NCBI GenBank assembly: GCA_002702655.1
Contig: PABB01000072.1
Coordinates: forward strand, 1-64,000
Reading direction: 5' to 3'
DNA from: Planctomycetaceae bacterium
Lineage (GTDB): Bacteria > Planctomycetota > Planctomycetia > Pirellulales > Lacipirellulaceae
DNA length: 64,000 nt
The notes under the pieces are model-generated. The model was not told the DNA's origin. It saw nothing but the letters and a program-made list of their open reading frames with translations, and ran no database searches. A program made the position numbers and the translations under genes. Below, piece by piece: positions 9,569-25,028 of the stretch; the stretch's first letter is position 1; every line of letters begins with the position of its first letter.

Positions 9569-9589
9569 GGCACCAGGATAGCGACTTCG

Positions 9590-9700: not shown

Positions 9701-9729
9701 CTTCCGCTCGCGTTGATCGAATACGACAC

Positions 9730-9801: not shown

Positions 9802-9812
9802 CTGAAGAGTAA

Positions 9813-9897: not shown

Positions 9898-10519
9898 CTG
9901 GTTTGGTACGACCCTTTCCTGAGCGACTGTGGAAAACACGGAATGGGACAGATGCTACCAAAGAAATCCCAACAGAGATTAACCATATCAATAGCCAGGT
10001 ATGCCACCCGGAGTCCAGGAATCGCCCCCAATAGTCGATAACGCCGTGCTCACGCGACCAGCTTGCATCAGCAATGATGAGCGATGCAGTCACACAACTT
10101 GCCGCCCAACAGCCCAGGAACAACCACCACCCGGACGCCAGAACGCAGATCGCTAGAGGAAGTAGCAAGTTCAAAAGGCAACCAACGACCCAGCCGCCAA
10201 ATCCAAAACCGCGTATGAAAGGGCCAGCCCAATATACGGCCGAGGTCGCAACCAGGAATGCAACTACCGTCGAAACCGACTTTCCAGTCTCCGTTCCTGC
10301 AAACAGCTTTCTCTTGAAACTAACCGATCGAGGATGACACAAGATAGCAATCGCGAGTGCCGGCACAAACCCGATTGCAGAAAACACTGCCGCGATCCAA
10401 GGCGCGTCAGCAACACCTCCCCGAATCCATGACATCGCCACTGAAGTAAACAACCCAAATGCCGCTGCGCACAAGACCGCTTCCGAAGGAGAAAACGACT
10501 TTTGGTTCGAGTTGGCCAT
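9863..10519 (-). CDS. hypothetical multi-pass membrane protein (low-GC cargo ORF)
   Basis: 5-6 predicted TM helices. Roughly 50% GC, against above 60% for the surroundings. The ATG at 10517-10519 is preferred over the upstream TTG. The 3-prime 35 nt overlap tRNA-Ser on the opposite strand. Confidence 0.35.
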   Translation of the reverse strand: MANSNQKSFSPSEAVLCAAAFGLFTSVAMSWIRGGVADAPWIAAVFSAIGFVPALAIAILCHPRSVSFKRKLFAGTETGKSVSTVVAFLVATSAVYWAGPFIRGFGFGGWVVGCLLNLLLPLAICVLASGWWLFLGCWAASCVTASLIIADASWSREHGVIDYWGRFLDSGWHTWLLIWLISVGISLVASVPFRVFHSRSGKGRTKPAEGEGVEPSRP

Positions 10520-10551
10520 GAATCGCAAGTTACCACACAAATGAAGTCTGT

Positions 10552-10617
10552 GGTGTACACGGTACGCACGCCTGCCTGTGAAGCAGGAGGTACGGGTTCG
10601 ATTCCCGTCGGATACCC
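10552..10617 (+). pseudogene. tRNA-His(GTG)-like, degenerate
   Basis: Anticodon arm CCTGC-CTGTGAA-GCAGG and T arm ACGGG-TTCGATT-CCCGT, but a truncated D arm and a poorly pairing acceptor. Confidence 0.35.
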
Positions 10618-10622
10618 CTTAT

Positions 10623-10692
10623 GCGAGTGTGCTCCTGGGAGAGCAGTCAGCCTCCAAAACTGACGAACAGGGTTCGAATCCTTGCGCTCGTG
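10623..10692 (+). tRNA. tRNA-Trp(CCA)
   Basis: Acceptor GCGAGTG/CGCTCGT with 2 GU pairs. Anticodon loop CTCCAAA is closed by GTCAG/CTGAC plus a C.A pair. T arm CAGGG-TTCGAAT-CCTTG. Confidence 0.5.
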
Positions 10693-10696
10693 CTTT

Positions 10697-10784
10697 GCCG
10701 ACGTGGCCGAATAGCTAGGCGCCGGTTTTGCCCCGTCCCTAGATAAAGCAGCGGTTGATGCTGGTGCGACTCCAGTCGTCGACC
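10697..10784 (+). pseudogene. class-II-like tRNA-like with G55 T-loop variant
   Basis: Acceptor GCCGACG/CGTCGAC pairs 6/7. T arm GCTGG-TGCGACT-CCAGT. Anticodon region ambiguous. Confidence 0.3.
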
Positions 10785-10788
10785 CTAC

Positions 10789-10852
10789 ATCTCGATGGTG
10801 TAACGGACCGCACGGGGCTCTCCAAGTCCTGGTTCGATTCCAGGTCGAGATG
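10789..10852 (+). pseudogene. truncated tRNA-like, 64 nt
   Basis: Perfect acceptor ATCTCGA/TCGAGAT, D arm and T arm intact, CTCCAAG loop, but the 3-prime half of the anticodon stem and the variable loop are missing. Confidence 0.3.
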
Positions 10853-10860
10853 CTGCGAAC

Positions 10861-10932
10861 AGCCCGTGAGTGTGCCGGATAGCATGTCAGCTTCCGAAGC
10901 TGTTGGACCAGGTTCGATTCCTGGACGGGCTA
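10861..10932 (+). tRNA. tRNA-Arg(CCG)
   Basis: Perfect acceptor AGCCCGT/ACGGGCT, anticodon stem CAGC/GCTG with loop TTCCGAA, T arm CCAGG-TTCGATT-CCTGG. Confidence 0.6.
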
Positions 10933-10936
10933 CTAC

Positions 10937-11009
10937 GCCTTGCGAGTGTGACGGACGAGCACGGCAGACTTCGAATCTGCAAGACGGGGTTCGATTCCCT
11001 GGCGAGGTA
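10937..11009 (+). tRNA. tRNA-Arg(TCG)
   Basis: Acceptor GCCTTGC/GCGAGGT, D stem GTGT/GCAC, perfect anticodon stem GCAGA/TCTGC with loop CTTCGAA, T arm CGGGG-TTCGATT-CCCTG. Confidence 0.65.
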
Positions 11010-11013
11010 CTTC

Positions 11014-11084
11014 AGCCTGTGAGTGTGTTGGATGCACGCGACCGTGCGAAGGTCGTAGGCCAGGTTCGATTCCTGGACGGGCTG
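11014..11084 (+). tRNA. tRNA-Arg(GCG)
   Basis: Acceptor AGCCTGT/ACGGGCT, D stem GTGT/GCAC, perfect anticodon stem CGACC/GGTCG with loop GTGCGAA, T arm CCAGG-TTCGATT-CCTGG. Confidence 0.6.
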
Positions 11085-11091
11085 CTAATTT

Positions 11092-11162
11092 GACGCTGGA
11101 GCCAGATGGCCAGGCAGCCGGCTGCAACCCGGCCAAAGTGGGTTCGACTCCCACCGGCGTCT
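11092..11162 (+). tRNA. tRNA-Cys(GCA)
   Basis: Acceptor GACGCTG/CGGCGTC, perfect anticodon stem GCCGG/CCGGC with loop CTGCAAC, T arm GTGGG-TTCGACT-CCCAC. Confidence 0.6.
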
Positions 11163-11274
11163 CTTTGTAAGCGAGGTTTTGAAAGCGCTGGGCCAGCGGC
11201 GCCCTCGGCCCCTTTCACCAGGTTGGCCGGGTGTGTTCCGTGGATGGATTGTTACGAAGGCGCGCGAGACCGCC

Positions 11275-11348
11275 ACAAGGTTAGCTCAGTTGGTTAGAGC
11301 ACCAGGCTGTTAACCTGGCTGTCACGGGTTCGACTCCCGTACCACACC
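11275..11348 (+). tRNA. tRNA-Asn(GTT) with canonical body but non-pairing acceptor stem
   Basis: Canonical D arm TAGCTCAGTTGGTTAGAGC, anticodon arm CCAGG-CTGTTAA-CCTGG and T arm ACGGG-TTCGACT-CCCGT. The 5-prime acceptor ACAAGGT pairs with the 3-prime ACCACAC over only 3 of 7 positions. The 9-bp direct repeat abuts its 5-prime end. Confidence 0.5.
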
Positions 11349-11807
11349 GCAGGCTGAAAACCTGCTCCCTACGTGAGGGACCGACGCGGAAGCGTCACCA
11401 TGAAGCCCGAGGGTAGCGGACGGTCGATTGGTCTGCCGCGCGTGAGTGCGAGGCTTTGGCCTAGGCAAGCTCGTAGCGGCAGCACAGACCGGCGCTATGC
11501 AGTGCGTGGATACCGCTTTCACGCACGCTGTGTCCGAAGGTTGTGGAAGCCAAGTGTCGCCCAACGAGCAATGCTCGTGACGGCCTCACCGGTGAAAGCA
11601 ACTGGGAGATACAGCGAACATGACCGCTCAAATTGCACTCCGCGCACGGATGTGTGACCAGGCGAACCAGTTCGCTGCCCGAGGGCCTTTTTCCGTGAAC
11701 CAAGTACAGGCAACCGTCGTCCTGCACTTCCTATACACACCGTTTCTGTATTCGGGGCGGGCAGCCGACCGCCAACCTATCTCGGCTGGAAAGGAGGTAC
11801 ATGCCTC

Positions 11808-12914
11808 ATGTTGTTTTTCAAGAAGGTGAAGATCAAGAGTTACGAGGTCGGCCTGTACTTCCGTGACGGCGAGTTCAAGCGATTGCTGACCACCGGTCGA
11901 CACTGGTTGTTCGATCCGCTGTGGAAGGTCCGCGTCGACGTCGTGTCGCAGCGTGATCCGTGGCTGGTCCACGACAAGCTGGACGTGATCGTCAAGAGCG
12001 GCGCCCTGACGGGTCTGGCCAAGGTCGTCGACCTCAAGGACCACGAGCGGGCGCTCGTGTGGATCGAGGGCCGCTTCAGCCATGTTCTGCCGCCGGGACT
12101 GTACGCCTACTGGACCGGCTTCAAGGACGTGCGGGTCGCGGTGATCAACGCCCGTGAAGTTCGGCTGCAGCATGCGGACTTCAAGGCGATCGTCCGTTCG
12201 CCGCACGCTGCGCAGGTGCTCGACATCTGCACGGTCGAGCGGAACCACGTGGGCGTTGCCTTCGTCGACGGCGAGTACGTCGAGACGCTCACCCCGGGCC
12301 AGTACGCCTGGTGGCGTGGCGTCGCCGACGCGAAGGTGGTCGAGGTCGACCTACGCGAGCAGGCCTTGGACGTGGCGGGTCAGGAAATCATGACCGCCGA
12401 TAAGGTCACGCTCCGCATGAACGCCTTGGTCAACTACCGCGTGACCGACGCTCGCAAGGCTGTGATGGTCAGCGACGGCGCGACGCAGTCGCTGTACCGC
12501 GAGGCTCAGCTGGCGTTGCGTGCCGTGGTTGGGATTCGCGACTTGGACTCGTTCCTGACGGACAAGGACGCCGTCGCCAGCGAGTTCGCGGAGCAGGTCA
12601 GCCGACGGGCGGGTGAGTTGGGTCTGGAAGTGGTTTCGGTAGGTGTCCGCGACGTCATCTTGCCGGGCGACATGAAGGACCTGATGAACAAGGTCACCGA
12701 GGCCAAGAAGGCCGCCGAGGCGAACCTGATCTCGCGACGCGAGGAGACGGCGGCCATGCGTAGCCAGGCGAACACCGCCAAGCTGCTCGCCGACAACCCG
12801 ACGCTGATGCGTCTCCGGGAACTGGAGGTCCTGGAGAAGGTCGCCACGAGCGGCAAGCTCAACGTCGTCTTGGGCGAGAAGGGCCTCGCCGATCGCGTGG
12901 TCAACCTGTTGTAG
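11808..12914 (+). CDS. SPFH/band 7 domain protein (stomatin/slipin-like)
   Basis: ATG at 11808 preceded by AAGGAGG. SPFH core with a C-terminal coiled coil. Followed by a strong terminator. Confidence 0.8.
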   Translation: MLFFKKVKIKSYEVGLYFRDGEFKRLLTTGRHWLFDPLWKVRVDVVSQRDPWLVHDKLDVIVKSGALTGLAKVVDLKDHERALVWIEGRFSHVLPPGLYAYWTGFKDVRVAVINAREVRLQHADFKAIVRSPHAAQVLDICTVERNHVGVAFVDGEYVETLTPGQYAWWRGVADAKVVEVDLREQALDVAGQEIMTADKVTLRMNALVNYRVTDARKAVMVSDGATQSLYREAQLALRAVVGIRDLDSFLTDKDAVASEFAEQVSRRAGELGLEVVSVGVRDVILPGDMKDLMNKVTEAKKAAEANLISRREETAAMRSQANTAKLLADNPTLMRLRELEVLEKVATSGKLNVVLGEKGLADRVVNLL

Positions 12915-12937
12915 CCAATCCCCTTGTTGATGCGGGA

Positions 12938-12972
12938 CCGGAGCCCGGGAGTGATCTCGGGCTCCGGTTTTC
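12938..12972 (+). terminator. Rho-independent terminator
   Basis: CCGGAGCCCGGGAGTGATCTCGGGCTCCGG followed by TTTT. Confidence 0.7.
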
Positions 12973-13147
12973 CGTGCGCGAACCTTCGTTGCCATGCCGT
13001 GTCATTCCCGCGGCACAACCGCAACCCCACCTTCAGCTATGAACACGTTCGAATCAAGCCAAACATCCTCGTCAACCTCGTCAGACGCTTCGGCGTCGGG
13101 CCGTAGGACAGCGCTTGCGTATGGCTGATTAATTTCAGAACGCTAGC

Positions 13148-13186
13148 AAAGCCCGCCCGGCTCACGAGCCTGGCGGGCTTTTTTCG
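13148..13186 (+). terminator. Rho-independent terminator-like hairpin
   Basis: AGCCCGCC...GGCGGGCT stem followed by TTTTTT. Confidence 0.55.
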
Positions 13187-13347
13187 TTTCTGGAGATGGG
13201 GAACGGCTTCGTTTGCCAACAACCCCTGTCGAGTTGCGACCGCTGCCCTGGCGCTGCATGGGCACAAAAAGGCCGTTGAGGCTGCTCACCTCTCCGGCTG
13301 GCCAGCGGTCGCGACGCAATTCCTTGTAGGAAAGGAGTGATAGAGCG

Positions 13348-14529
13348 ATGGTTCAAAAGATCCACGTCAACGTCGGCACGATCGGTCACATCGACCACGG
13401 GAAGACGACGCTTACCACCGCGAACTTGCGCGTGCAGTCCGGGCGCGGCCTGGCCGAGTATAAGTCCTACGCCGAGGTCGCCAAGGGCGGCGTCACCCGC
13501 GACAAGAACAAGACCGTCACGGTCATCACTTCGCACGTGCAGTACGAGACGGAGTCGCGCAGCTACGCGCACGTCGACTGCCCGGGCCACGCGGACTACA
13601 TCAAGAACATGATCACCGGCGCCGCCCAGATGGACGGGGCCGTGCTCTTGGTGTCGGCCGTGGACGGCCCGATGCCGCAGACGCGGGAGCATATCCTGCT
13701 GGCGCGGCAGGTCGGCGTGCCTCACCTGGTCGTCTTCATGAACAAGTGCGACCTGGTCGAGGACCCGGAGTTGCTCGACCTCGTGGAGCTGGAGATGCGC
13801 GAGATGCTCACGCACTACGGGTTCCCAGGAGAGGACGTTCCGTTCGTGCGGGGCTCCGCGCTCTTGGCGCACGACAACCCGGCGGACGCGGAGTCGAGTC
13901 GTTGCATCGGCGAGTTGCTGGACGCGCTCGACACGTACGTGCCTGCCCCCAAGCGGGCGGTCGACAAGCCGTTCCGGATGTCGATCGAGAACGTGTTCTC
14001 GATCGAGGGGCGGGGCACCGTTGTGACCGGCGTGGTCGATCAAGGCCGGATCGCTCCCGGCGACTCGGTCGACATCGTCGGCCTGGCGGACCAGCCGCGG
14101 ACGGTCGTGTGCACGCAGCTCAAGACGTTTCAGGACGTCTTGGAGTCCGCCGAGGCGGGCGACAACGTCGGTTGTTTGCTCCGTGGCGTCGGCCGCGATG
14201 AGGTCGAGCGCGGGCAGGTGATTGTCGCTCCCGGATCGCTCGCGCCGCACACACGGTTCGAGTCGGAGGTGTACGTGCTCGACCAAGGAGAGGGCGTCCG
14301 GCACACGCCGTTCATAAACGGTTACACGCCGCAGTTCTTCTTCCGCACGACGGACGTGACCGGAGAGGTGAGCCTGCTGGGAGGCGCCGAGGTCGCGATG
14401 CCGGGCGACGGCATCAAGCTCGGTGTCCGGCTGCAGAAGCCAATCGCCCTGGATGCTGGCTCGCGTTTCGCGATCCGCGAAGGGAACCGCACGGTTGGTT
14501 CCGGTGTCGTGACGTGTATTATTGAGTAG
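13348..14529 (+). CDS. tuf: elongation factor Tu paralogue with a divergent switch I
   Basis: 393 aa with G1 [24 protein letters not shown] and the EF-Tu C-terminal [10 protein letters not shown]. The switch I/effector region is [15 protein letters not shown] where canonical EF-Tu has [19 protein letters not shown] SD. Not in a str/S10 ribosomal context. Confidence 0.85.
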
Positions 14530-14589
14530 CTTGAACGCCGGAGGCCGGGAGCTATCCCGGCCTCCGGCCTGTTTCAGTGGAGAGAGTTC

Positions 14590-15150
14590 ATGGCCAACGA
14601 GCGCATTTACCTCGCCCTCGGCGATAGTATGAGCATTGATGACTACACCGGCGTGAAGGGCGGCGGTGCGGTCAATCAGTTCTTTCGCTCCTTGGGCAGC
14701 GACTGGTCGCTCGACGACCGTACGTTTGACGGTTGTCAGATGGCCGGTGTCCCGAGAGACGGGGTCGGCGATATCGTCACGCTGACTATCGGCGGCAATG
14801 ACCTGTTGTGGAACAAAGAAGAGTACCTCCGTGAAGGAGTTGCCGACTTCGCGGCGGAGCATCTCGCCCTGCTGCGGGCGCTCCGGAAGCAGAACCCGAC
14901 CTCGCTGCTGATCGTGGGAGACATCTACGGCCCCGCAGCGCCCCTTACGGACGCCGAGGCGCATGGTCTGGCGCACGCGAATCAAGCGATCCACGAGAAC
15001 TGCCGCGAGGTGGGGGCCCGACTCGCCACGATTCACGAGGCATTCCAGGGCCGCGAAGATTCGCTGTTGTGTCTTGGAATCGAGCCGACTCTTAAAGGGG
15101 CTGAAGTGATTGCAGGGCTGTTTGCGGATGCAATGACACGCGAGCGGTAG
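14590..15150 (+). CDS. SGNH/GDSL hydrolase family protein
   Basis: GDSMS block I and GGNDL block III. GGAGAG SD. Confidence 0.75.
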   Translation: MANERIYLALGDSMSIDDYTGVKGGGAVNQFFRSLGSDWSLDDRTFDGCQMAGVPRDGVGDIVTLTIGGNDLLWNKEEYLREGVADFAAEHLALLRALRKQNPTSLLIVGDIYGPAAPLTDAEAHGLAHANQAIHENCREVGARLATIHEAFQGREDSLLCLGIEPTLKGAEVIAGLFADAMTRER

Positions 15151-15199
15151 TTCGTCGTTGCCTTGCTGCGAGAGTGGCTTTGGTGCTGCCTTTCGAGTC

Positions 15200-16833
15200 A
15201 TCAGTAGCAACGTGGCGTCGTGAGGTTGAAGAGCCTTCGGTCCAGGTTGGTTTGGTTCGCTGTCATAAACGTTTGAAGCATGTTTCGGCCACCCGGTTCG
15301 CTTCTCACCGCCCCACCAGCGCTTCGGCGGGACCGGGACAACCGTTCCTCGCAGCGGCAGCACGCGGTCGTGCAGCTTCTCCATCTCGTAGTTGATCGTC
15401 TCGTCGCTCATCCGCAGGCTCATCTCCGTCATGCTGATGAACGGGCCTTCCTCCGCCTCACGCGGGTGACGGGCCTCCCATTCCCGGACCTTCTCGTGCG
15501 CCTCCCGCGAGTGCGTCGTCATCAGCGCCGAACGGCACTCGGACGTCTGCTCGTGGTCATCGCTCGCGTCCAGAGCGCCGGCCAGCTCCGCGCGGCCCCA
15601 GGGCTGGTCGACGATCGCCAGCGCCGCCGCAGCCGTGATGCGGTTGCAGGGAATCTCTGAACGCAGCGCCCGCCGAAACGTCTCTACCGCGATGTCGGGA
15701 AAGAACTCCAGCGCCAGCAGCGCAGCGTCTCCCAGGCAGTTCGACTCGATGCGGCGGAGCGTCTGCTTGATCCCCGAGGAGCGTCCCCGCCGCAGCAGGT
15801 ACTCGGCGCAGGCGCGCCACACGTACGGCTGCGGGATCTCCCCGTTGGCGTTGATGCGGTTGATCAGCGCCTCGACCTCGTCGGTCCAGTCAGAATCGAT
15901 CTGGGCGAGCACTTCTAGCGCCGCGGAAGTCTCGCCCGAGGGCGGGCCCGCCAGGCACCGGCGGAGCACCCCTTCGAGCCGGTCGCTGCCGAGCGCCCGC
16001 AGCGCGTGCAGCGACTCCGCCCGGTCGACCCCGGCGTCGAAGTCGGATTCGAGGGCCGCCGCCCTCTCCGCCACGTGCTCACTGTGCAAACGCTCCGCCG
16101 TCGCCGAGTCGTCCCCCTCGACCAGCGACGCGACACAACCCCAGTCCCCGAGCGCCGCCCCCAGGCAGCAGCGGACCTCGGCGCTGCCCCAGCGCTCTTC
16201 AATCCGCGCGAGCAACTCGGCGATCGCTTCATGCTGAAAACCAACCCGAACGCCGCTGCTCTCCTCGAACGTCTCGAGCAGGCCCGCGTCCTTGAGCCGC
16301 CTCATCGCCAGCCGGACCGCGGCCCCGCGGGGGTGCAGCGCCTTGACCCGCTCCTCGACAAACGCCGGCGCCTTCAGCGACTCGAGATACCATACAAAGA
16401 AGTACGGGTCGGTCCAGTCGCAGGAGTCGTCGTAGAAGTCGACGTCGATGGCCTCGCCGCTTTGCCGGTGGGTGAGGCAGCAGCCCCGGCCGTGGAAATA
16501 GTACTCCCAGTCATCATCCCCGGGCACTACTCCTCGCCCCGGCCGATCCGGGTGGCCGGCGTATCCAGATGTCGCCAGGGCCTGAAGGCTGCCGCCAAGT
16601 CGAGCGACCACCGTGTCGGCGACGAACTGCTGGCGTTCCCGGTGCCGCACCAAGCAGAGCAGTGTCCAGGCCTCCCACGGAGAGATGGGCAGCGGCGCAC
16701 TGAGCCAGCGCCGCCAGAGACCAGGGTGGTCAACGTCATCGGCGATGGATCTGAGTCGCTCGGTCAGTGCTCTTATAGTTTTTTCCAACCTACTGACGCC
16801 CTGTAATCTCCGGCCTTCATCGGCCACTCCCAT
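15200..16833 (-). CDS. hypothetical protein (N-terminal third of a 1223-aa ORF)
   Basis: The first roughly 500 aa have protein-like composition (W/F/Y/D/E-rich). The remainder of the ORF is antisense to the GDSL and EF-Tu genes and is regarded as spurious read-through. There is no in-frame stop, so the C-terminal boundary is unknown. Confidence 0.3.
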
Positions 16834-17155
16834 ATACTGGCGATGACAGCAATTCTAAACGCTCTCCCGGTTCTTGCGAACCTTTCGTGGCACGCCGCGG
16901 TCTGTCTGGCGGTAAATGTTCCAAGCTGATCTGGAGGACAGACTCGTGTACGCCCAACTCTCCACTCTTGCCCCGCTGAGCCCGCGCTGCTGCTAGGCTC
17001 GGCCGCTGCGCCTTTCGTGGCGTCGGTTCGGTCTGCCTTCGCGGGCTCCTCTTGCCGCTGATTGTTCTTGATCAGTTCGGCCGGCGCGGTGTTGCGCCGG
17101 TGCTTCTTAATCAGGCAAGGGTCCCAAGCTGGGGCCACGTACCACGAGGATGGCT

Positions 17156-17590
17156 ATGGCGCTTGATAAGCGTACGCGCGAGCAGATGCTCGCAATGTGT
17201 GGAGAGATCCACGAGGACGACGGGGTCGACCCCCGCGAATTCTTCAAGTCGGGACGTGGTCCCCGCAAGCAAGACCACAAAGCGCGGCAGCTCTGCCGCC
17301 AGGCGGCGGCGACCTTGGACCAGGTACTCTCTGGAGAGACGGGCGACGATCGACTGGCCTGCCTGCGGGTCGTCTCGGTGCAGCCAGCACCGGACGCATC
17401 GCGGCTGCTGGTCACAGTTGTGGCGACCTGCGCTGCAGTGGACTTCTGTCGAGATGCGACAGCAGCCCACCTGCAAGGGTCCGCAGGGCGATTGAGGACC
17501 GCGGTCGCGGCGGCGATCACGCGTCGCAAGGCGCCGACGCTGGCGTTCGTCTTGCTCGGCCCCGATGGAGAGGAGGCCCAACATGGTTGA
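17156..17590 (+). CDS. hypothetical small protein, translationally coupled to rtcB
   Basis: ORF ends 7 nt into the rtcB start region and has plausible composition. No recognised domain. Confidence 0.4.
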   Translation: MALDKRTREQMLAMCGEIHEDDGVDPREFFKSGRGPRKQDHKARQLCRQAAATLDQVLSGETGDDRLACLRVVSVQPAPDASRLLVTVVATCAAVDFCRDATAAHLQGSAGRLRTAVAAAITRRKAPTLAFVLLGPDGEEAQHG

Positions 17591-18716
17591 GCCACAACTC
17601 GCGGAACTGCAAACCTGGCTCACCGAACCGCTGACGTCGGCCGTCGCGGAGTCCGTATCAAGACTCCGCGCGGCCGAGGGCGTGAAGAAGGTTTGCCTGA
17701 TGCCCGACGTGCACCTCGCTGCAGAGGTGTGCGTCGGCGCTGTGGTCGCTACCGAGGGCGCCCTCTACCCACAAGCGGTTGGAGGCGACATAGGTTGTGG
17801 CATGGCGGCGCTGCGTTTCGACCTCGAAGCCGAAGCGCTTAGCAACGAGCGGCCGGCCGGCGCCGTGCTGGCCGCCCTGTACCGGTCTGTGCCCAGCAAC
17901 AAGCACCGCCAGGCGGTCCCTCTCCCTGAGGCGTTACGCCCCGCCGATCTGAGCGAGCAGACACTGGCTAAGCTCGCCACGCGTGACGGCGCTGTGCAAC
18001 TCGGAACGCTCGGTCGCGGCAACCATTTTCTGGAGTTCCAAGTAGACGAAGCCGGGCAGCTGTGGGTGATGCTGCACAGCGGCTCGCGGGCGATGGGGCA
18101 GGCGATCACCGCTCTCCATGTATCAAACGGAGAGCCAAACCGTTTCGGGCTCCGCGGCCTCGACGCCGAAACCCATCTCGGCGCCGCCTATCTTAAGGAC
18201 GTGGCTTGGGCGAGGAAGTACGCCACGGAGAACCGGTTGGCGATGCTGCGGGCGGTTGAAGAGCTCATGTCTCGGCTCTTCCGAGCCGACGCGGACTGGA
18301 AATCACTCATCCACGCCGACCACAACCACGTGCAGAGAGAGGCTTACGGCGGGCGGAGCTATTTCGTCCACCGCAAAGGCGCTCAATCCGCGGCGGACGG
18401 CGAATCCGGCGTCGTTCCCGGTTCGATGGGCGCCGCCAGTTTCCACACCGTCGGCCGAGGCTGCGCAGCGTCACTCTCGTCCTGTTCCCACGGGGCCGGA
18501 AGGCGCATGAGCCGGACAGAAGCCCGCCAAGAGATCACCAGTAAGTCGTTCCAGCGGCAAGTTGGCGGGCTCTGGTACGATCACCGCCGCGTCGATCGCC
18601 TGCGAGACGAGTCGCCCGGCGCCTACAAGAACATCCGTGAGGTGATGCGCGCCCAGCGCGAGCTCGTCAAAATCGTCCGCAAACTCCGGCCCCTGCTGAG
18701 CTACAAGGGCGTCTAA
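17583..18716 (+). CDS. rtcB: RtcB-family RNA ligase (3-prime-phosphate/5-prime-OH)
   Basis: PDVHLA, GGDIGCGM, GRGNHFLE, HADHNH and SHGAGR motifs. GGAGGAGG SD before the ATG at 17583. Short, about 378 aa form. Confidence 0.85.
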   Translation: MVEPQLAELQTWLTEPLTSAVAESVSRLRAAEGVKKVCLMPDVHLAAEVCVGAVVATEGALYPQAVGGDIGCGMAALRFDLEAEALSNERPAGAVLAALYRSVPSNKHRQAVPLPEALRPADLSEQTLAKLATRDGAVQLGTLGRGNHFLEFQVDEAGQLWVMLHSGSRAMGQAITALHVSNGEPNRFGLRGLDAETHLGAAYLKDVAWARKYATENRLAMLRAVEELMSRLFRADADWKSLIHADHNHVQREAYGGRSYFVHRKGAQSAADGESGVVPGSMGAASFHTVGRGCAASLSSCSHGAGRRMSRTEARQEITSKSFQRQVGGLWYDHRRVDRLRDESPGAYKNIREVMRAQRELVKIVRKLRPLLSYKGV

Positions 18717-18787
18717 TTGCTGAGAAGGTGGGAGTCGTTAGCAGCTTATCACCTACGAGGGCGGCACGTGATGGACCTTCGCTTGGA

Positions 18788-18807
18788 TGACTGACCTATA
18801 TCAACCT
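18788..18807. repeat. tandem 10-bp repeat CCTATATCAA x2
   Basis: Seen in the convergent intergenic region between rtcB and mcrC. Confidence 0.3.
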
Positions 18808-18817
18808 ATATCAATTG

Positions 18818-19852
18818 TCAGCTCAAGACCGTCAATAGTCGATCGTGAATGATGGGCCACGGCCGATCGAGATCGATGCTCTTGATGCCGATCGCGTGGC
18901 CGAGCAGCGTGAAATCGAGGTCCAGGTGGTGGTTCACCGCGGGGTAGAGCAGGACCCCCGCGACCGACTCCCACCCGGGGTCGCGGGATTTGTTGCTCAG
19001 GTAGGCGGTCAACTGGTAGAGGTGCGCCGAGTGCAGGCGGTGGCGGTTGTGGCGGGTCGCCAAGGCTGACTTGTAGAACTTGCAATCGAGGATCGTTTTC
19101 TTGGCGGGCCGGTCGAGCGTCACGTCGGTGTGCATCCGCGGCAGCACCTGCTCGACCTCGTCCCCCCATGACCCGTCCCAGTTGATCGCCATGGCCGACA
19201 CCCTGGCGTCGGGGCAGTGCCGGATCGCGAACTTTCGCACAAACGCCTCGAAAACCCGGTGCATGACCGTTTCCGATTCCAGGATGCTCCGGAACCGCTT
19301 GCCGCCCGCTTGCTGCGAGGGCAGGTGCGCCTCGTGCAGCAGCTGGCACACGTGCATCAGCAGACGGTAGTGCCGGTTGTTGCGGTGCAGCTGATAGCGG
19401 CGGAAGGTTCTCGAAGTAATCGCCACCGGCTGGATGTCCGACAGCAGCGCGAGCGCGTGCCGCGCCTCCAGCCGGTTTTCCTTGGTGAGCTGGGAGCCGG
19501 CGGCCGCGAGCCGCAGGCAGGTGCTCTTGAGGATGCGGTTGGGGAGCGTGTTCGCCGTCAGCTCGTCATACTCGCAGAGCATCCGCCCGGAGACGTGCAT
19601 CATCCGCCGGCAGCTCGCCAGCACGTCGACGCGACCGCGCAGACGCGGCGTCGCCTCCCGAAACTCATGGTAGCCCTTGTCCATCCCTTGGCTGGCTAGG
19701 CAGCGCACCCCGCCGGTCAACAGCATCGCCAGCAGGTTGTGGGCGTCGGGGCACTGCCGCGGGTCGATGTTGACCTCCTCGCCGCTGCGGAAGTGGTCCC
19801 ACGCGTAGGCGAGCAGGTAGTAGACGTTCTGAACGGGGATCGCACTGATCAT
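18818..19852 (-). CDS. mcrC: McrC-like restriction system subunit
   Basis: PD-(D/E)xK-like LDCKFYK motif. ATGA overlap with the upstream McrB gene. Confidence 0.8.
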   Translation of the reverse strand: MISAIPVQNVYYLLAYAWDHFRSGEEVNIDPRQCPDAHNLLAMLLTGGVRCLASQGMDKGYHEFREATPRLRGRVDVLASCRRMMHVSGRMLCEYDELTANTLPNRILKSTCLRLAAAGSQLTKENRLEARHALALLSDIQPVAITSRTFRRYQLHRNNRHYRLLMHVCQLLHEAHLPSQQAGGKRFRSILESETVMHRVFEAFVRKFAIRHCPDARVSAMAINWDGSWGDEVEQVLPRMHTDVTLDRPAKKTILDCKFYKSALATRHNRHRLHSAHLYQLTAYLSNKSRDPGWESVAGVLLYPAVNHHLDLDFTLLGHAIGIKSIDLDRPWPIIHDRLLTVLS

Positions 19853-21981
19853 TCGACCGGCCCGTCGAGCAGTTCCAGCGCCGCGGCCAGTTGCGTGGCG
19901 TCGTCGCAGTAGTACTCTTCCAGCAGCGGCCTGATCTCATAGGCGAGCACCTGATTGAGCCAGGCGGCGTTGGCCGGCTCGCCGTCGGTCGGGCAGAAGA
20001 AGCTGTGGCCGATGCGGTAGCCCCGGCCCAGGTTCGACTCGTCCGCGGCGATCATCTCGTTAAGCCGTTTCATGCGACTCGCAATCTCGGCGGTCAGCTC
20101 AGCGGGAGCGCCGCGGCTTTGTAACAGGCTCGTGAAGACCGGCGAGTCGAAGCCGGGGGCGAGCTCGACGAACGCAAACCGGCGGCGCAGCGCGTAGTCG
20201 ACCATCGAGAGCGACCTATCGGCGGTGTTCATGGTGCCAATGAGGTGGACGTTGGGCGGGACGTAGAAGGTCTCTTCGGGGTCGGAGGAGTAGCTCAGCG
20301 GGATCGCGAACTCGGACGACCGCTTGTCCGGCTCGATGAGCATCATCAGCTCTCCGAACACCTTGGACATGTTGCCGCGGTTGATCTCGTCGATGATGAA
20401 CACAAACGGCAGCGTGGGTTTCGCGAGCGCCGCGTCGACGAAGCCGTGGAACGTCCCGTTCTCCAGCTTAAAGCCGCCGTCGCCGCTCGGCTTGAACCCC
20501 TGCACAAAATCCTCGTAGGTCAGGGACTGGTGAAACTGCACCATCTGCACGCGGGACTCGTCCTGCTGCCCCATCAGCAGGTAGGCGAGCCGCTTCGCCA
20601 CGAACGTTTTGCCGGTGCCGGGCGCGCCCTGCAGCACGAGGTTCTTCTTCCGCTTCAGCAGCTCGACGCAGGACTCGACCTGCAGCTGAGGCAAGAACAG
20701 GTCGGTCATTGCTTCGGTGATGCCGTAGGCGCGGTGAACGGGCTTGGGCGTAACTTTACGGGCGGGCTCCGGTGGAGGCCCCACCGATTCCAGGCCCGGG
20801 ACGCCCTGGTACTCCTGGGCCATCTGGGCCAGGAAGCTGGTCTTGGTCGTGACGCGGGTGATCGTCTTGAGCGGCAACTGCGTCCCGGTCGGCATCTTCG
20901 CCTCGGTGTCGCCCTGCCAATCGATCTTCCGGACGTTGTAGTACGGGTCGCGGCTCTCGTCGTACTGATAATCGCCGGCGACGACCCCCCAGCCGCAGAT
21001 CTTGTGCAGGCCCTGCTTCGCGAACACGACGTCGCCCGGCCGCATCTCGCGTGCGAACTCCCACAACATATGGGCGACGTGCAGCGGCCCGGAGTCCTCG
21101 TAGACCTTGGGCAGGTACTCCATCATCGCTTCTTTCGAGGGGTACTCGTTGAGGTCCCCCATACCGTTCCAGCCGATCGCCCCAAGCCCTTCGGCAAACC
21201 AGGTATCCCACAGCACGGCCCCTCGCCCCGGGGCGAGCAGCCAGTAGTTGCGGTCGGAAGCGGGGGCGGGGCCCACATCTTCGTCATCGTCCGGCACGGG
21301 CTTCTCCTCCAGGGTGTTGAGGTGCGCTTGGAGTGAGAATTCGCAGGTTGATTTGTCGGTCTTCTGCCGGACCTCTTCGAGCCACTTCAGGTAGTCCGCC
21401 CCGCCGGCGACCTGGCGGGTGACGCCCAGCGAGGAGGCGTACTCGCGATTCTTCTTGTCGACCGCGATCCACAATTCCGGTCGGCTCCAAAACATCCCCA
21501 TGGTTAGCGACGCGGGGGCGACCTTCCGCAATGCACAGCAGGCGTCGAACAGTTCGGTGTCAAGCTCGCTGGGGGCGTCGATCTCCAGGCAGTGCCGGTA
21601 GAAACGCCAGAGAGTCGCCACGTGGTGAGGTTCGCGGCGTTTCTGATACGGCATGAACCAGCTCGATTGCAGGTTCATGATTGGCAAGCCATCAAAATCC
21701 TGCGGCAACTCCGCGCCCAGTTTCCACTCGTCTTTGATCGCTGCAATGATGGCCCGGCGGTTGTCGTAGGTCACGCCCCGGTTGAAGTTGGCGAAGAACG
21801 AGAAGGGGTCGATCTCCGCCATGGGGACTTCCTTGTCGTTCACGTCCCGATCCACGACGCTCGACACTTTGAGGCCTTGGTCGTGCAGCTTGATCATCAG
21901 CGCGACAAGCTGGTCGTGCGAGTGCTCGAACTCGCAAAGCTTCTGGGCAATCTCTGCGTAAATGGGCTTCCATGTGAACAT
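19849..21981 (-). CDS. mcrB: McrB-like AAA+ GTPase restriction subunit with N-terminal domains including an EVE/PUA-like reader domain
   Basis: Walker A GAPGTGKT, FIIDEINRGN and the McrB GTPase core. N-terminal region YWLLAPG...GDVVFAKQG..ICGWGVV resembles the EVE/PUA-like fold. Confidence 0.85.
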   Translation of the reverse strand: MFTWKPIYAEIAQKLCEFEHSHDQLVALMIKLHDQGLKVSSVVDRDVNDKEVPMAEIDPFSFFANFNRGVTYDNRRAIIAAIKDEWKLGAELPQDFDGLPIMNLQSSWFMPYQKRREPHHVATLWRFYRHCLEIDAPSELDTELFDACCALRKVAPASLTMGMFWSRPELWIAVDKKNREYASSLGVTRQVAGGADYLKWLEEVRQKTDKSTCEFSLQAHLNTLEEKPVPDDDEDVGPAPASDRNYWLLAPGRGAVLWDTWFAEGLGAIGWNGMGDLNEYPSKEAMMEYLPKVYEDSGPLHVAHMLWEFAREMRPGDVVFAKQGLHKICGWGVVAGDYQYDESRDPYYNVRKIDWQGDTEAKMPTGTQLPLKTITRVTTKTSFLAQMAQEYQGVPGLESVGPPPEPARKVTPKPVHRAYGITEAMTDLFLPQLQVESCVELLKRKKNLVLQGAPGTGKTFVAKRLAYLLMGQQDESRVQMVQFHQSLTYEDFVQGFKPSGDGGFKLENGTFHGFVDAALAKPTLPFVFIIDEINRGNMSKVFGELMMLIEPDKRSSEFAIPLSYSSDPEETFYVPPNVHLIGTMNTADRSLSMVDYALRRRFAFVELAPGFDSPVFTSLLQSRGAPAELTAEIASRMKRLNEMIAADESNLGRGYRIGHSFFCPTDGEPANAAWLNQVLAYEIRPLLEEYYCDDATQLAAALELLDGPVE

Positions 21982-22105
21982 GCTGTGCTCTCGTCCGTCG
22001 TCGTGCCTTACGGGTGGATGTAACCATCCGCCGCTCGACGCCCATTATCGCGGATCGGCGACCACCCGCCAGGACCGCCCCCTGCGTTGAGCAAGTCAGT
22101 CGCCC

Positions 22106-23380
22106 CTACCGGGGCTTGCGAGGGATGTGACCCTCACGCGCGAGCAGGTCTTCGTCTACCTTCTCATCGAGAACGGAATGCGGGCTGGGGCGCAGCGGGT
22201 CAAGACGGTCCGCCTGCTCAAAACCCCACCTCAAGTAGTCGGCAAGGCGGCTGTCAATCGCCACAACCCCGTCGGGGGCCTTCGCCCAGCACAGCTGGTC
22301 CAGGTATTCGCGTAGCACCTCGCTCTGACGCAACGAGTCGGCGTGATGGATCAGCCGCTCGACACAGGCACGCTCCTCGTCCTGGCGCTGCTTTAGAGCG
22401 TCGCGCAGACGCTTCAGTTCTGCCTCACGTTCCAGACGGACCCGCTCTGCCTCGGCTCGACGACGCTCTTTTTCCTCGCGTTCACGGCGGGCAATTCGCC
22501 CCTCCCCGGCCTCCTTCACGAATCCGATCACCAAGCCCTCCAGCTTGTCTTCAATCTTCTTCGCCTTGCCGTCGATCGCGAGCGGGGAGCGGTAGCTCGA
22601 CGGCCCATCGTCCAGCAAGAGATTACCGCTGGGCACCAGGTCGAGTTGGTCACGCTCCCATGAATACTGCGCGTCCGGATTCTTGGTGCGGACCTGGTTG
22701 TGCTTCTCACGGATCCGCAGCGTCGTCACGGTCTCGCCGGCGAAGCGAACCACCGTCTCGTACTGATTGGCGTTGTAATGCTTCGGCTCGACTTGGACGA
22801 CTCCCCCGACTTGCTCGATCCGCTTGATGAGGGCGTCCATAATGCGCAGCGCTCTCTTTAGCAAAGAGCCGCCTACCTCCACCGACAAACCACGCGGGGC
22901 CTTGTCGCGACAGTCGCTGGAACGCTGCGACCAAGGGAGTCTCTGCTGAGCCGCTTCGCGCTGTAGGCGTTCTTTCGTGGCCAGGATCAGGGGGTGCGGC
23001 TTGCGGAGCTTCTCGGGAACCAACACGGCGCCGAGAGACGTCGCCTTGGCGAGCAGCTGGCGAATGTCGTCATCGTACTGGAGTTCGCGTGGCGGTTCGT
23101 CGACCGTCGATTCATAGTCTTCGTGCTGATGAAAGACGATCCTGCGTTGGTCCGCCTCTTCGTCCGGCGGCAGCGGCGTCTTCTTGGTCGTTTTGCCGTT
23201 GGCCAGCTTGACCCAGTAGCCGGGGTAAGGCTTGGGGATGTTGTACGAACGGCAGGTCTTGCCAATGGTGACGTCCGAGCACCCTAGCTCTTTTGCCAGT
23301 CGGGTCGCCGGCGCAGACCACACAAAGTCGTAAAACTCTTGGCGAGTGAACGAACGAGTTTCACATTCTGTTACTGGCAA
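22106..23380 (-). CDS. hypothetical protein with N-terminal HTH-like region and a central Arg/Glu coiled coil
   Basis: TRLAKELGCSDVTIGKTC helix-turn-helix-like segment. RREREEKERRRAEAERVRLEREAELKRLR coiled coil. GGGAG SD. Confidence 0.5.
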   Translation of the reverse strand: MPVTECETRSFTRQEFYDFVWSAPATRLAKELGCSDVTIGKTCRSYNIPKPYPGYWVKLANGKTTKKTPLPPDEEADQRRIVFHQHEDYESTVDEPPRELQYDDDIRQLLAKATSLGAVLVPEKLRKPHPLILATKERLQREAAQQRLPWSQRSSDCRDKAPRGLSVEVGGSLLKRALRIMDALIKRIEQVGGVVQVEPKHYNANQYETVVRFAGETVTTLRIREKHNQVRTKNPDAQYSWERDQLDLVPSGNLLLDDGPSSYRSPLAIDGKAKKIEDKLEGLVIGFVKEAGEGRIARREREEKERRRAEAERVRLEREAELKRLRDALKQRQDEERACVERLIHHADSLRQSEVLREYLDQLCWAKAPDGVVAIDSRLADYLRWGFEQADRLDPLRPSPHSVLDEKVDEDLLAREGHIPRKPR

Positions 23381-23804
23381 TAGTCCGCTCCCGTATTGAT
23401 TAAACCTTGAGACGTCCCTGGCAACCTATCAATAGGCAGGATCTCGTGAGTAAGCAAACATGGTGGGGCTCGATCGCTGTTCAGTAAACTGAGGCAGTGC
23501 TCCAACCCGGCCGAACTGAGGGCGCTGTTGCCTTGATCTTGCAATACGGTGTGTATTCACCCCTTGATGTTTGTGTCGAGGTCGAAGCGAACTTAGAAAA
23601 CGCGATGAAGCTCCCAAACCACCATCTCGGATGCGTTGGGGCAAGGGATCAAAACGCCATGTTGGGCAACTCCGTGGATTGTAACAGCTGCGAGGCTTGG
23701 CAACCCGGCCGAGGGCTCACTGCATGAATACGCGGCATTGATGCGTGGTCACAAATGCGCGCCCGGCGGGTATCATAGGGGTTTTCATACACGATCGATT
23801 CCGC

Positions 23805-25028
23805 ATGCCCGACGAAGAGAAGCACGACCCGCGTCAGCCGCTTCCGTACCATTTTGCGATCCGCGACTACCTCAAGAACGAGGAGTCGCAGATTTGGGAG
23901 TGGTACGCGTCGAACCGCGTGCGCGCTGAGCAGAACGAGGCGATCCGCTTCGACCTGCTCAAGTCGACCTACCGCATCGACCGGGACGCCCAGCCGGCCC
24001 TATACGACATGGCCGACAAGGTCGCAAAGAGTCTCGGGATGGAGGTCCCGGTGACGCTCTACCAGGCCCAGAACCCGCAGGGCCTGAATGCGTCGCTGGC
24101 GTACATCCCCGACGAAGCCCACGTCGTCTTGCACGGCCCCATCGCGTCTCGCCTGACCGAGCCGGAACTGCGGGCGTTGCTGGCCCATGAGTTGGGCCAT
24201 CTTCTGCTCCACAGCCGGTGGGGCGGGGACCTCCTGGTCGCCGAGCAGGTCCTCGCGGCGATGACCCACGACCGCGACGCCGACACGCCGCACTTCGCCA
24301 GCGCCCGGCTGTTCGGGCTTTACACGGAGGTGTTCTGCGACCGGATCGCGCTCGACGTGTCGGGCTCTCCGCTGGAGGTGATCTCGATGCTGGTGAAGAT
24401 CGCCACCGACCTGGACGAGGTGAACCCGGAGAGCTACCTGAAGCAGGCCGCCGAGATACTCGGGAAAGGCCCGATCAAGACCGCCGGCCTGTCCCACCCC
24501 GAAGCGTACATCCGCGCGCACGTGCTGCAGCTGTGGCATGAACAAGCCGTCGAGGCAAACGCGCGGATCGCGGAGCTGATCGAGGGCCCGCCCGCGCTCG
24601 ACGAGCTTGACCTCACGGCCCAGGTGCGCGTCATGGGCGTCACGCGGCGACTGATCGACGCCATGCTGGCGCCGAAGTGGCTGCAGACCGACGTGATCCT
24701 CGCCCACGCCCGCCTCTTCTTCGAGGAATACGCACCGGCCGACAACGACATCGCAATCGAATCGCTCCGCGAAGATATCCAACAGAGCGACCAGCCCCTC
24801 CGGGACTACTACTGTTACGTCCTATTGGACTTCGCCTCGGCCGACCGGGAATTGGAGGAAGCGCCTCTGGCGCAGGCGATCGGCGTGGCGGACGCCGTGG
24901 GCCTCGATGATGGCTTTCTCAGCATCGCCGCAAAAGAACTCAAACTCCGCAAGAAGCAGGTCGAGAAGATCTCCGCCGACCGAGAACGCATTGTCGCCGC
25001 CGCGGCCAAGCTGGAGGCGGCGTCATGA
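23805..25028 (+). CDS. soluble M48-like zinc metallopeptidase-fold protein
   Basis: HELGH motif with a downstream EVFCDRIA third-ligand motif, M48/HtpX-like, and no TM segments. The stop overlaps the start of the downstream helicase gene (ATGA). Confidence 0.6.
   Translation: MPDEEKHDPRQPLPYHFAIRDYLKNEESQIWEWYASNRVRAEQNEAIRFDLLKSTYRIDRDAQPALYDMADKVAKSLGMEVPVTLYQAQNPQGLNASLAYIPDEAHVVLHGPIASRLTEPELRALLAHELGHLLLHSRWGGDLLVAEQVLAAMTHDRDADTPHFASARLFGLYTEVFCDRIALDVSGSPLEVISMLVKIATDLDEVNPESYLKQAAEILGKGPIKTAGLSHPEAYIRAHVLQLWHEQAVEANARIAELIEGPPALDELDLTAQVRVMGVTRRLIDAMLAPKWLQTDVILAHARLFFEEYAPADNDIAIESLREDIQQSDQPLRDYYCYVLLDFASADRELEEAPLAQAIGVADAVGLDDGFLSIAAKELKLRKKQVEKISADRERIVAAAAKLEAAS

Follow-up and report, generated by a model that had tools for sequence, protein, structure and literature searches.

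An RbfA-fold protein coupled to the RNA ligase RtcB in an operon found across the Planctomycetota

Here, we analyzed a 64,000-nucleotide (nt) stretch of DNA from a Planctomycetaceae bacterium (contig PABB01000072.1, positions 1 to 64,000 of the forward strand; GC content, ca. 0.62), referred to below as the window, in which a gene for the RNA ligase RtcB follows a small open reading frame (ORF). The original prediction for this locus took the two genes, a nearby tRNA array and a nearby EF-Tu gene to be a translation back-up or repair module. We found that the small ORF encodes a protein which, as judged from profile searches and a structural model, has the KH-type fold of RbfA (30S ribosome-binding factor A), that it is translationally coupled to rtcB, and that the pair is an ancient, Planctomycetota-wide operon with its own promoter and leader. 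We propose, tentatively, that this is a stress-induced operon in which the RbfA-fold factor brings RtcB to damaged 30S subunits and their 16S rRNA, and possibly to tRNA, within a recurrent translation back-up island; we rate this proposal as close to probable, but short of it. The features of the operon are as follows.

16878 to 16903, plus strand: extracytoplasmic function (ECF)-sigma-type promoter motif, GAACC-N17-GTCT, recognized by its positional conservation in ca. 40 loci.
16946 to 16996, plus strand: candidate leader peptide (upstream ORF, uORF), GTG to TAG, VYAQLSTLAPLSPRCC, with the Shine-Dalgarno (SD) sequence GGAGG at 16933 to 16937; recognized by its aligned position.
16978 to 17048, plus strand: leader hairpin P1, in which GAGCCCGCG (uORF codons 11 to 14) pairs with CGCGGGCTC; recognized by a conserved motif and by pairing.
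17058 to 17101, plus strand: leader hairpins P2 (CTGAT/ATCAG, 17058 to 17075) and P3 (GC rich, 17080 to 17101, flagged as terminator-like), followed by the CU-rich tail GCTTCTTAAT.
17156 to 17590, plus strand: RbfA-like protein, 144 amino acids (aa), with an N-terminal extension (residues 1 to 45) and an RbfA KH-type core; Pfam, family profile and AlphaFold/Foldseek.
17583 to 18716, plus strand: RtcB 3'-phosphate/5'-OH RNA ligase, short form, 377 aa; Pfam PF01139, active-site motifs and homologue lengths.

The small ORF had been described as 145 aa long, devoid of any recognizable domain, and not an archease. The ORF itself stands, at 144 aa rather than 145, and it does have a recognizable domain. 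It matches the Pfam family RBFA (PF02033) with an E value of 4e-7 and 30.6 bits, narrowly missing the gathering score of 34.7, and several of its relatives match RBFA at an E value of 1e-5 or below; the match to TIGR00082 is weak (19.2 bits; cut-off, 51.15). A PDB search with a profile of 32 family members returned RbfA chains only. In an AlphaFold model made from the family alignment, the core (residues 40 to 140) is predicted with confidence (predicted local distance difference test, 81 to 93) and shows an alpha-beta-beta-alpha-alpha-beta topology. All of the 20 highest-ranking PDB structures that Foldseek gave for this model are bacterial or mitochondrial RbfA, headed by 2dyj (template-modeling score, 0.84; root mean square deviation, 1.7 Å). 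The remark that the protein is not an archease is in agreement with our results, given that no archease family of Pfam matches it at an E value below 0.01 and that the fold is that of RbfA. Three overlapping alternative ORFs on the two strands (17052 to 17495, 17197 to 17634 and 17111 to 17623) were rejected, there being no family match in any of them.

The family alignment, in which the proteins begin with MALDKRT, retains an AxG-type segment (SAGRLR) and a C-terminal R(R/K)KAPxLxF motif. Its N-terminal extension is family specific, is more strongly conserved than the core and contains the invariant residues R10, C17, D23, D24, D27, P28 and F32; on its own it was modeled with low confidence. 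The closest matches to the window protein are metagenomic proteins with 85 to 92% identity, and that of Pirellulimonas nuda is 75% identical; by such protein matches, the window belongs to an uncultured planctomycete of the Pirellulales. By its predicted fold, the protein would bind the 30S subunit or its precursor and may take part in 16S rRNA maturation. Since the partner of RtcB has an RbfA fold, the 30S subunit and its 16S rRNA must be considered as the target at least as much as tRNA halves.

The second gene is an RtcB, as predicted. It matches PF01139 with 278 bits and an E value of 2e-82 (curated cut-off, 27), and its motifs GGDIGCG, GNHFLE, HSGSR, HNH and SHGAGR align with those of the Pyrococcus horikoshii and Thermus thermophilus enzymes, for which structures have been solved. 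Judging from this alignment, the active site is intact, with the metal-binding Asp, Cys and His residues and the GMP-accepting His all retained, and the predicted activity is the GTP- and Mn-dependent sealing of 3'-phosphate or 2',3'-cyclic phosphate ends to 5'-OH ends. We placed the start at the ATG at 17583 because every homologue has 375 to 377 aa and begins at the equivalent position; a start at 17565 was rejected on the same ground. The TGA of the RbfA-like ORF (17588 to 17590) overlaps this ATG within ATGGTTGA, so that the two ORFs share 8 nt, and an SD sequence, GGAGAGGAGG, lies 7 nt upstream of the ATG, inside the last codons of the RbfA-like ORF. On account of this stop/start overlap and internal SD sequence, we concur with the earlier view that the two genes are translationally coupled. 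An rtcA/rtcR-type housekeeping context, against which the original prediction had set its repair module, was looked for in the window and is not present: the Pfam searches of window ORFs revealed neither RtcA nor the RtcR sigma-54 activator.

To what extent the pair is conserved was assessed in a sample made up of the window and 61 non-redundant loci (identified below by L-numbers), 56 loci reaching at least 1.3 kb downstream. In 38 of these 56, RtcB is the next gene after the RbfA-like one, either overlapping it or separated from it by less than 50 nt, and the overlap measures 4 to 8 nt; distant family members (E values around 1e-29) are coupled to RtcB in the same way. The family has 386 word-sharing relatives in a database clustered at 90%, and an exhaustive HMMER scan gave 1,379 clusters at 50% identity with E values of 1e-10 or below, canonical RbfA being too distant for inclusion. 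Its members come from Pirellulales, Planctomycetales, Isosphaeraceae and Phycisphaerae, and their tree is roughly congruent with taxonomy. Cultured carriers of the operon include Pirellulimonas nuda, Adhaeretor mobilis, Lacipirellula and Caulifigura coniformis. RtcB is not the only RNA-repair gene found to adjoin the RbfA-like gene. In L064, an Isosphaeraceae-like contig (8001 to 10351), the RbfA-like gene keeps the uORF/P1 leader in the absence of RtcB, and a convergent gene for the RNA 3'-phosphate cyclase RtcA lies 650 nt downstream, this being the only locus with an adjoining RtcA; Ro60 and YrlA-like RNAs are the neighbors in L062, L036 and L044.

The similarity of the window to its relatives at the DNA level starts ca. 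230 to 280 nt upstream of the RbfA-like start, in a region whose elements were defined from an alignment of 24 to 35 loci. The motif GAACC-N16/17-GTC[TCG] occurs 250 to 310 nt upstream of the RbfA-like start in ca. 40 loci. In the window as a whole the motif is found 3 times against 2.7 expected, which is the chance frequency, and we therefore give weight only to its positional conservation; its use as a regulon marker within the window was rejected for this reason, and the copy upstream of the SPFH gene (described below) is not conserved in relatives. GAACC-N17-GTCT has the layout that is classical for ECF-sigma promoters and would, from its sequence, act as an ECF-type (stress) promoter. In L001 (7896 to 9380), L003 (7915 to 9309), L006 (62 to 1456), L025 and L030, the 3 kb upstream of the RbfA-like gene contain a gene for an ECF-sigma/Ser-Thr-kinase fusion, which is divergent in all of these except L025, where it is on the same strand; a small ferredoxin gene is found alongside. 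This fusion, whose gene is absent from the window, is a candidate regulator of the GAACC-N17-GTC promoter. On the minus strand, a sigma-70-like promoter match (16852 to 16880, TTCGCA-17-TAGAAT) faces a DUF6896 gene and stands back-to-back with the ECF-type motif, which it partly overlaps.

Downstream of the promoter motif, all 35 of the 35 loci compared have, at corresponding places in the alignment, a strong SD sequence followed by an ATG or GTG that opens an ORF of 10 to 23 codons. The P1 motif, GAGCCYG-N35-65-CRGGCTC, occurs once per locus, and of the 25 loci that match it, 23 have it at the leader position; 81% of its cells in the alignment are paired, and one pair covaries (UA 18, CG 6 and UG 3). 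In 32 loci, 80% of the cells are paired in P3 and 64% in P2, and over all leader stems in these loci 76.7% of the cells are paired, compared with 34 to 41% when the partners are slid. Covariation is modest because the stems barely vary. When searched against Rfam at E values up to 10, positions 16600 to 17400 gave no significant match (four chance-level ones, far below the gathering score), and the whole window gave nothing besides tRNAs at the gathering score. The overlap of the uORF with P1 and the terminator-like character of P3 suggest that the leader may be a ribosome-sensing attenuator.

The wider surroundings of the pair bear on the idea of a translation back-up module, and they contain the following features.

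5486 to 11343, plus strand: long tRNA array (L-array) of 29 tRNAs and a tRNA-like element (11279 to 11343); ARAGORN and Rfam.
11808 to 12914, plus strand: SPFH/Band-7 (slipin-like) protein; Pfam Band_7, E value of 6e-30.
13348 to 14529, plus strand: EF-Tu, 393 aa; TIGR00485, 569 bits (cut-off, 522).
15200 to 16833 (lower boundary approximate), minus strand: gene with a DUF6896 domain; Pfam DUF6896, 45.9 bits, and codon-position GC.

RtcB was thus rightly placed near a tRNA array and an EF-Tu gene: the distance is 6 kb to the array and 2.6 kb to the EF-Tu gene, which is probably a supernumerary copy. The 29 tRNAs found by ARAGORN lie at 5486 to 11163 (5.7 kb), all on the plus strand, serve 17 amino acids (the calls include none for Met, Thr or Tyr) and reach the Rfam gathering score in 25 cases. 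The array has the hallmarks of an L-array (Santamaria-Gomez 2021), or tRNA array unit (Tran 2016): at least 20 tRNA genes, at least 2 per kb, one strand, non-periodic. Three tRNA-like sequences stand outside the ARAGORN calls. That at 11279 to 11343 reaches 54.8 bits with the tRNA model of Rfam and has the anticodon GUU, but its acceptor stem is of 3 bp only; this element is what the window has to offer where a Y RNA was sought, and no Y RNA was found in the window. The other two, at ca. 8555 to 8626 and ca. 9594 to 9673, align with tRNA-Met and tRNA-Ser(gct) of the array on the phage contig L070 (see below). On the minus strand, an ORF of 1,223 codons (13162 to 16833) was rejected as a giant gene, its codon-position GC being of coding type in the 5' third only; the rest of it, down to 13162, is an antisense artifact, the mirror frame of the EF-Tu gene and a GDSL gene.

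The original prediction had proposed that conservation of this neighborhood be checked in related genomes, and that check is positive. In L014, L029, L034, L035 and L057, an array of 12 to 42 tRNAs is found no more than 10 kb from the RbfA-like gene, and shorter remnants are found in L003, L004, L033, L038 and L044. Of the species-level loci, 30 are 15 kb or longer, and 5 of these have an array of at least 10 tRNAs (binomial P = 1.6e-7 under a generous null, which assumes one array at a random position in every genome). In the RbfA-like tree, the array-linked loci represent at least five clades, and the orientation of the array relative to the pair varies (upstream and co-directional, upstream and divergent, or downstream). 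EF-Tu genes adjoin the RbfA-like gene in L042, L044 and L062 (72 to 96% identity). That of L062, 96% identical to the window gene, occupies the same relative position; those of L042 and L044 directly follow the RbfA-like gene, in the place of RtcB, and the window EF-Tu is 71 to 72% identical to them.

L062 is the closest relative with context (RtcB, 90% identical). Its contig begins partway through a tRNA-Cys that has the same sequence as the final tRNA of the window array. Next come two YrlA-like Y RNAs, Ro60, EF-Tu, an ApeA-HEPN protein and a phosphoesterase; after these stand the leader and the RbfA-like/RtcB pair, and then an NAD-salvage cluster. The Y RNAs (303 to 441 and 493 to 571) score 51 and 32 bits, with E values of 7.5e-10 and 3e-4, and do not reach the gathering score of 69; the Ro60 orthologue, EF-Tu and ApeA-HEPN protein are encoded at 918 to 5741. 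From this gene order and these identities it follows that the window and L062 share several blocks, namely, the end of the array, EF-Tu with 410 nt upstream of it, and the pair together with its leader. The cassettes that separate these blocks have been exchanged, with SPFH in the one and Y RNA/Ro60 in the other, and GDSL plus DUF6896 in the one and HEPN plus phosphoesterase in the other. Ro60 also adjoins the RbfA-like gene in L036 and L044. The proposal of a translation back-up or repair module therefore holds in part. Its core, the linkage to tRNA arrays and EF-Tu, recurs; a ligase dedicated to the array does not fit, since the pair occurs without an array in most genomes. The partner has an RbfA fold, and the transcription units are separate.

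The array itself appears to have traveled. Its gene order (Phe-Glu-Pro-Pro-Ile-Lys-Ile-Lys-Thr-Gly-Pro-Asn ... Arg-Arg-Arg-Cys) is common to the window, L014, L029, L035, L057 and L070, the last being a 94-kb contig (IMGVR_UViG_3300007072_000340) from a putative planctomycete phage, in which the relevant features lie at 4911 to 18327. L070 carries an array of 36 tRNAs with an embedded HNH endonuclease gene (8244 to 8840), an SPFH gene (9995 to 11107) and, 5.5 kb beyond SPFH, a gpA-type large terminase subunit gene (16654 to 18327). The window array is colinear with that of L070 at 69 to 93% nucleotide identity. L014, L035, L038 and L057 have the same HNH gene within their arrays; the window lacks it. 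SPFH homologues with 70 to 71% identity directly follow the array in L033, L035, L057 and L070, and others are present on IMG/VR contigs. Because a colinear array, HNH and SPFH occur together on a viral contig that bears a terminase, we regard the array and SPFH as a phage-type mobile cassette. The RbfA-like/RtcB operon, unlike this cassette, is chromosomal and old; no RbfA-like gene was found on viral contigs. A plasmid or phage origin of the window was rejected, in that a megablast search with 11000 to 23000 against PLSDB and INPHARED gave no near match, only short tuf and McrB segments.

Directly before the first array tRNA, ca. 140 nt (within 5335 to 5490) are strongly conserved in six arrays (window, L003, L014, L029, L035 and L057). 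The inverted repeats GTGACAC/GTGTCAC in this region give two alternative hairpins that share GGCCCGGTGTCAC, one of them followed by a T-run. The region has a folding z-score of -3.9 (0 of 200 shuffles were as good) and no Rfam match, and its sequence looks like that of an attenuator or operator.

How the operon may work can be outlined as follows. Envelope or translation stress would switch it on, and the leader would then sense the progress of a ribosome on the uORF, the last codons of which form the 5' arm of P1, with the terminator-like hairpin lying beyond P1. The RbfA-like protein would dock on damaged or immature 30S subunits at the 3' minor domain of the 16S rRNA (h44/h45 and the anti-SD sequence), where it may present, or hold open, the broken rRNA ends (2',3'-cyclic phosphate and 5'-OH) so that RtcB can seal them. 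Cleaved tRNAs would be a further possible substrate. Plausibly, the island of the window, comprising the operon, a phage-type array of ca. 30 spare tRNA genes, SPFH and an extra EF-Tu, would serve as a kit for restoring translation after RNA damage.

Several observations weigh against this proposal. It is by inference that we have the RbfA-like protein bind the 30S subunit and RtcB, and no RbfA-RtcB fusion protein was found among the best 150 representatives of the family. RtcB is missing from ca. 30% of the loci, most of which keep the N-terminal extension, and the RbfA-like protein must for this reason have a function independent of RtcB; perhaps it is no more than the housekeeping RbfA of the phylum. 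The window RtcB fails TIGR03073 (release_rtcB, the model for PrfH-coupled RtcB2), scoring 148.2 bits against a cut-off of 271.8, and thus stands outside that subfamily. Within the window, the array, SPFH and EF-Tu on the one hand and the RbfA-like/RtcB unit on the other are linked loci and not one operon, because the minus-strand DUF6896 gene lies between them. As for the leader, its covariation score was matched by 42 of 500 shuffles, RNAalifold retains only the core of P1, and the CU-rich tail after P3 has no clean U-tract.

The nearest precedent is RtcB2, which, paired with the ribosome-binding factor PrfH, repairs 16S rRNA in the 30S subunit and not tRNA (PMC9304027, PMC13166195). In E. 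coli and other bacteria, RtcB2-PrfH is likewise a two-gene operon that combines a short-form RtcB with a small paralogue of a ribosome-binding factor (PMC9304027, PMC9223846, PMC13166195), and the implied logic is the same: the factor would recognize or open the damaged ribosome, and RtcB would seal the 16S rRNA. However, the partner described here has the fold of a 30S assembly factor, while PrfH is a release factor homologue; the partner gene precedes rtcB, the opposite of the order in RtcB2-PrfH; control would be exerted by an ECF-type promoter and a uORF leader; and 16S rRNA as the substrate is, in the present case, our own suggestion. No prfH lies beside the window rtcB, whose neighbors are the RbfA-like gene and McrC, and Pfam reveals no adjacent protein with a PCRF or RF-1 domain. 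Compared with canonical RbfA (TIGR00082/PF02033), the family shares the KH-type alpha-beta-beta-alpha-alpha-beta fold (template-modeling score of up to 0.84), the helix-kink-helix with its AxG-like segment and the C-terminal basic P-x-L-x-F motif. It differs in the additional 45-aa N-terminal extension, in having a leader of its own and in its genomic context, and the window ORF falls under both curated cut-offs.

One bolder, and in our estimation rather unlikely, possibility is that the RbfA-like/RtcB pair is a dedicated small-subunit repair system that evolved independently as a second counterpart of PrfH-RtcB2. A paralogue of an assembly factor would reopen the 3' minor domain of 16S rRNA, RtcB would reseal cuts made there by ribotoxins or toxin-antitoxin systems, and the operon would sense stalling through its leader peptide; together with phage-derived arrays, spare EF-Tu, SPFH and Ro60/Y RNA, the pair would make up a modular emergency kit.

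RsgA releases RbfA from the 30S subunit, and both are therefore late 30S maturation factors. This makes for a parallel with Anabaena, in which, under translational stress, the repressor TrcR co-regulates a tRNA array, rtcB, the late-30S factor gene rsgA, rimK, an HNH gene and a gene of the slipin (SPFH) family (PMC10272220). Cyanobacterial rtcB is co-regulated with an L-array, which in Anabaena is the trn operon, while array tRNAs are being cleaved (PMC8421152). The parts are much the same as ours (a long tRNA array, HNH endonuclease, RtcB, a late 30S factor and slipin/SPFH), and in both systems the arrays are supernumerary, have been transferred horizontally and also occur in phages (PMC8421152, PMC10272220). 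Earlier reports have described long tRNA arrays in Planctomycetes, along with the horizontal spread of such arrays and their HNH genes, and in cyanobacteria an association with rtcB (PMC4758250, PMC8421152). The two systems differ in that the Anabaena genes are dispersed and are tied together by TrcR and promoter repeats, whereas those of the Planctomycetota are physically clustered and have other control elements. Moreover, the 30S factor is RsgA in Anabaena and, in the present case, an RbfA-like protein coupled to RtcB, and there is here an extra EF-Tu and, in relatives, Ro60/Y RNA. The latter recall the rsr-yrlBA-rtcBA (Ro60/Y RNA/RtcB/RtcA) operon of Salmonella, which is under RtcR control (PMC7790460, PMC4201824), and Ro60, tRNA-like Y RNAs or RtcA are associated with the RbfA-like gene in L062, L036, L044 and L064. 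The window, in contrast, has no RtcR/sigma-54 control, no RtcA by RtcB and no Ro60/Y RNA, SPFH being in that cassette position.

The substrates of bacterial RtcB and the means by which it is guided to them are largely open questions, PrfH-RtcB2 being the sole worked-out case of guidance by a partner. An RtcB/RbfA-fold operon that spans a phylum would be a concrete, testable second case of RNA ligation guided by an assembly factor on the ribosome, and its conserved promoter and uORF leader offer a handle on the inducing signal. The role of long tRNA arrays is also debated. Their clustering in Planctomycetes and the dispersed co-regulation in Anabaena argue that they are part of a conserved translational-stress response and more than selfish DNA. 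In the full-text literature searched, nothing relevant mentions RtcB together with RbfA or "ribosome-binding factor A," and as far as this literature goes, neither the operon nor its leader seems to have been described.

Downstream of RtcB, defense genes bear on a further reading of the locus and are listed below.

18818 to 21981, minus strand: McrC (18818 to 19852) and McrB (19849 to 21981), convergent with rtcB; Pfam.
23745 to 30538, plus strand: M48-like peptidase (23745 to 25028) and an 1,837-aa Upf1-like helicase-nuclease (25025 to 30538); Pfam and PADLOC.

The statement that RtcB abuts a McrBC/helicase defense island is accurate. The helicase has the domains DUF4011, AAA_11, AAA_12, MTES_1575 and WGR, is Hhe-like, and matches the PADLOC system PDC-S37 with 706 bits. 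A pair of M48 and helicase genes, 71 to 72% identical to that of the window, directly follows RtcB in L010 (Bythopirellula, 11663 to 18018), and in L067 (1781 to 7585) a distant helicase homologue lies divergently upstream of the RbfA-like/RtcB pair. McrBC is absent from this position in all relatives examined and is for this reason taken to be an insertion specific to the window; together with the ORF at 22106 to 23380, it looks like a later insertion between RtcB and the M48/helicase pair.

Three other explanations deserve consideration. The original one was a tRNA-repair module, in which RtcB reseals the tRNA halves left by anticodon nucleases, the partner speeds guanylylation and turnover in the manner of an archease, the array replaces lost tRNAs and the extra EF-Tu delivers them. 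This would account well for the linkage of RtcB to the array and EF-Tu and for the presence of HEPN/ApeA and of Ro60 with tRNA-like Y RNAs in the L062 island; the invariant acidic residues D23, D24 and D27 of the N-terminal extension could reach the RtcB active site, and cyanobacterial rtcB is co-regulated with the L-array during cleavage of array tRNAs (PMC8421152). We nevertheless consider it unlikely, as the partner has the fold of RbfA and no archease match, the pair is without an array in most genomes, the extension is retained in members that have no adjoining RtcB, and in the sole case studied a short RtcB with a ribosome factor preferred the 30S subunit over tRNA (PMC9304027). According to a second, slightly less likely, explanation, the small gene is nothing other than the planctomycete rbfA and RtcB its passenger, and arrays, EF-Tu and defense genes merely gather at a hotspot of integration or recombination with no functional tie. 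The nusA-infB-rbfA-truB context that such a gene would suggest was never met in any locus whose gene content was examined, and an ECF-type promoter with a uORF leader would be unusual for a housekeeping assembly factor. The neighbors that recur are, moreover, specifically genes of RNA repair and translation (RtcB, RtcA, Ro60/Y RNA, EF-Tu and tRNA arrays), in several arrangements and clades, and the same parts are co-regulated in Anabaena though unlinked (PMC10272220). Even so, a phylum-wide distribution with a tree that broadly follows taxonomy is what a housekeeping gene would show, many sources name the protein RbfA, the flanks are cassette-like and highly variable among close relatives, the array and SPFH block is phage borne, and McrBC was inserted in the window only.

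There remains self-protection, by which RtcB and the RbfA-like protein would reverse collateral RNA damage inflicted by the adjoining helicase-nuclease or by other abortive-infection effectors. The M48 and helicase genes behind RtcB in L010, the helicase homologue by the pair in L067, the ApeA-HEPN protein of the L062 island and the match of the helicase to a candidate defense system (PDC-S37) all speak for such a role. Against this, neighbors of this kind are missing at most loci, McrBC targets DNA, the helicase nuclease domain MTES_1575 has a restriction-endonuclease fold and presumably also acts on DNA, and the pair is under a promoter and leader of its own; we find this explanation very improbable. 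Our preferred reading is therefore still the stress-induced operon outlined above, in which the RbfA-fold factor would guide RtcB to the damaged small subunit.

In the Pirellulimonas-like relatives (L001, L002, L003, L004, L006, L010, L026 and L062), a conserved gene cluster with functions in NAD salvage and the removal of ADP-ribose borders the pair; it encodes NAPRTase, NAD synthase, NrtR-Nudix, a nicotinamidase-like isochorismatase, PARG, ADP-ribosylglycohydrolases and Macro, with the RNA 2'-phosphotransferase Tpt1/KptA added in L001 and L003. In the window, McrBC occupies the position of this cluster. The variable region as a whole is flanked by genes for a PRiA4b ORF-3-like protein (265 to 1671, minus strand) and an rve-family transposase (37185 to 38297, minus strand), and a polysaccharide/O-antigen-type cluster begins at ca. 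40 kb.

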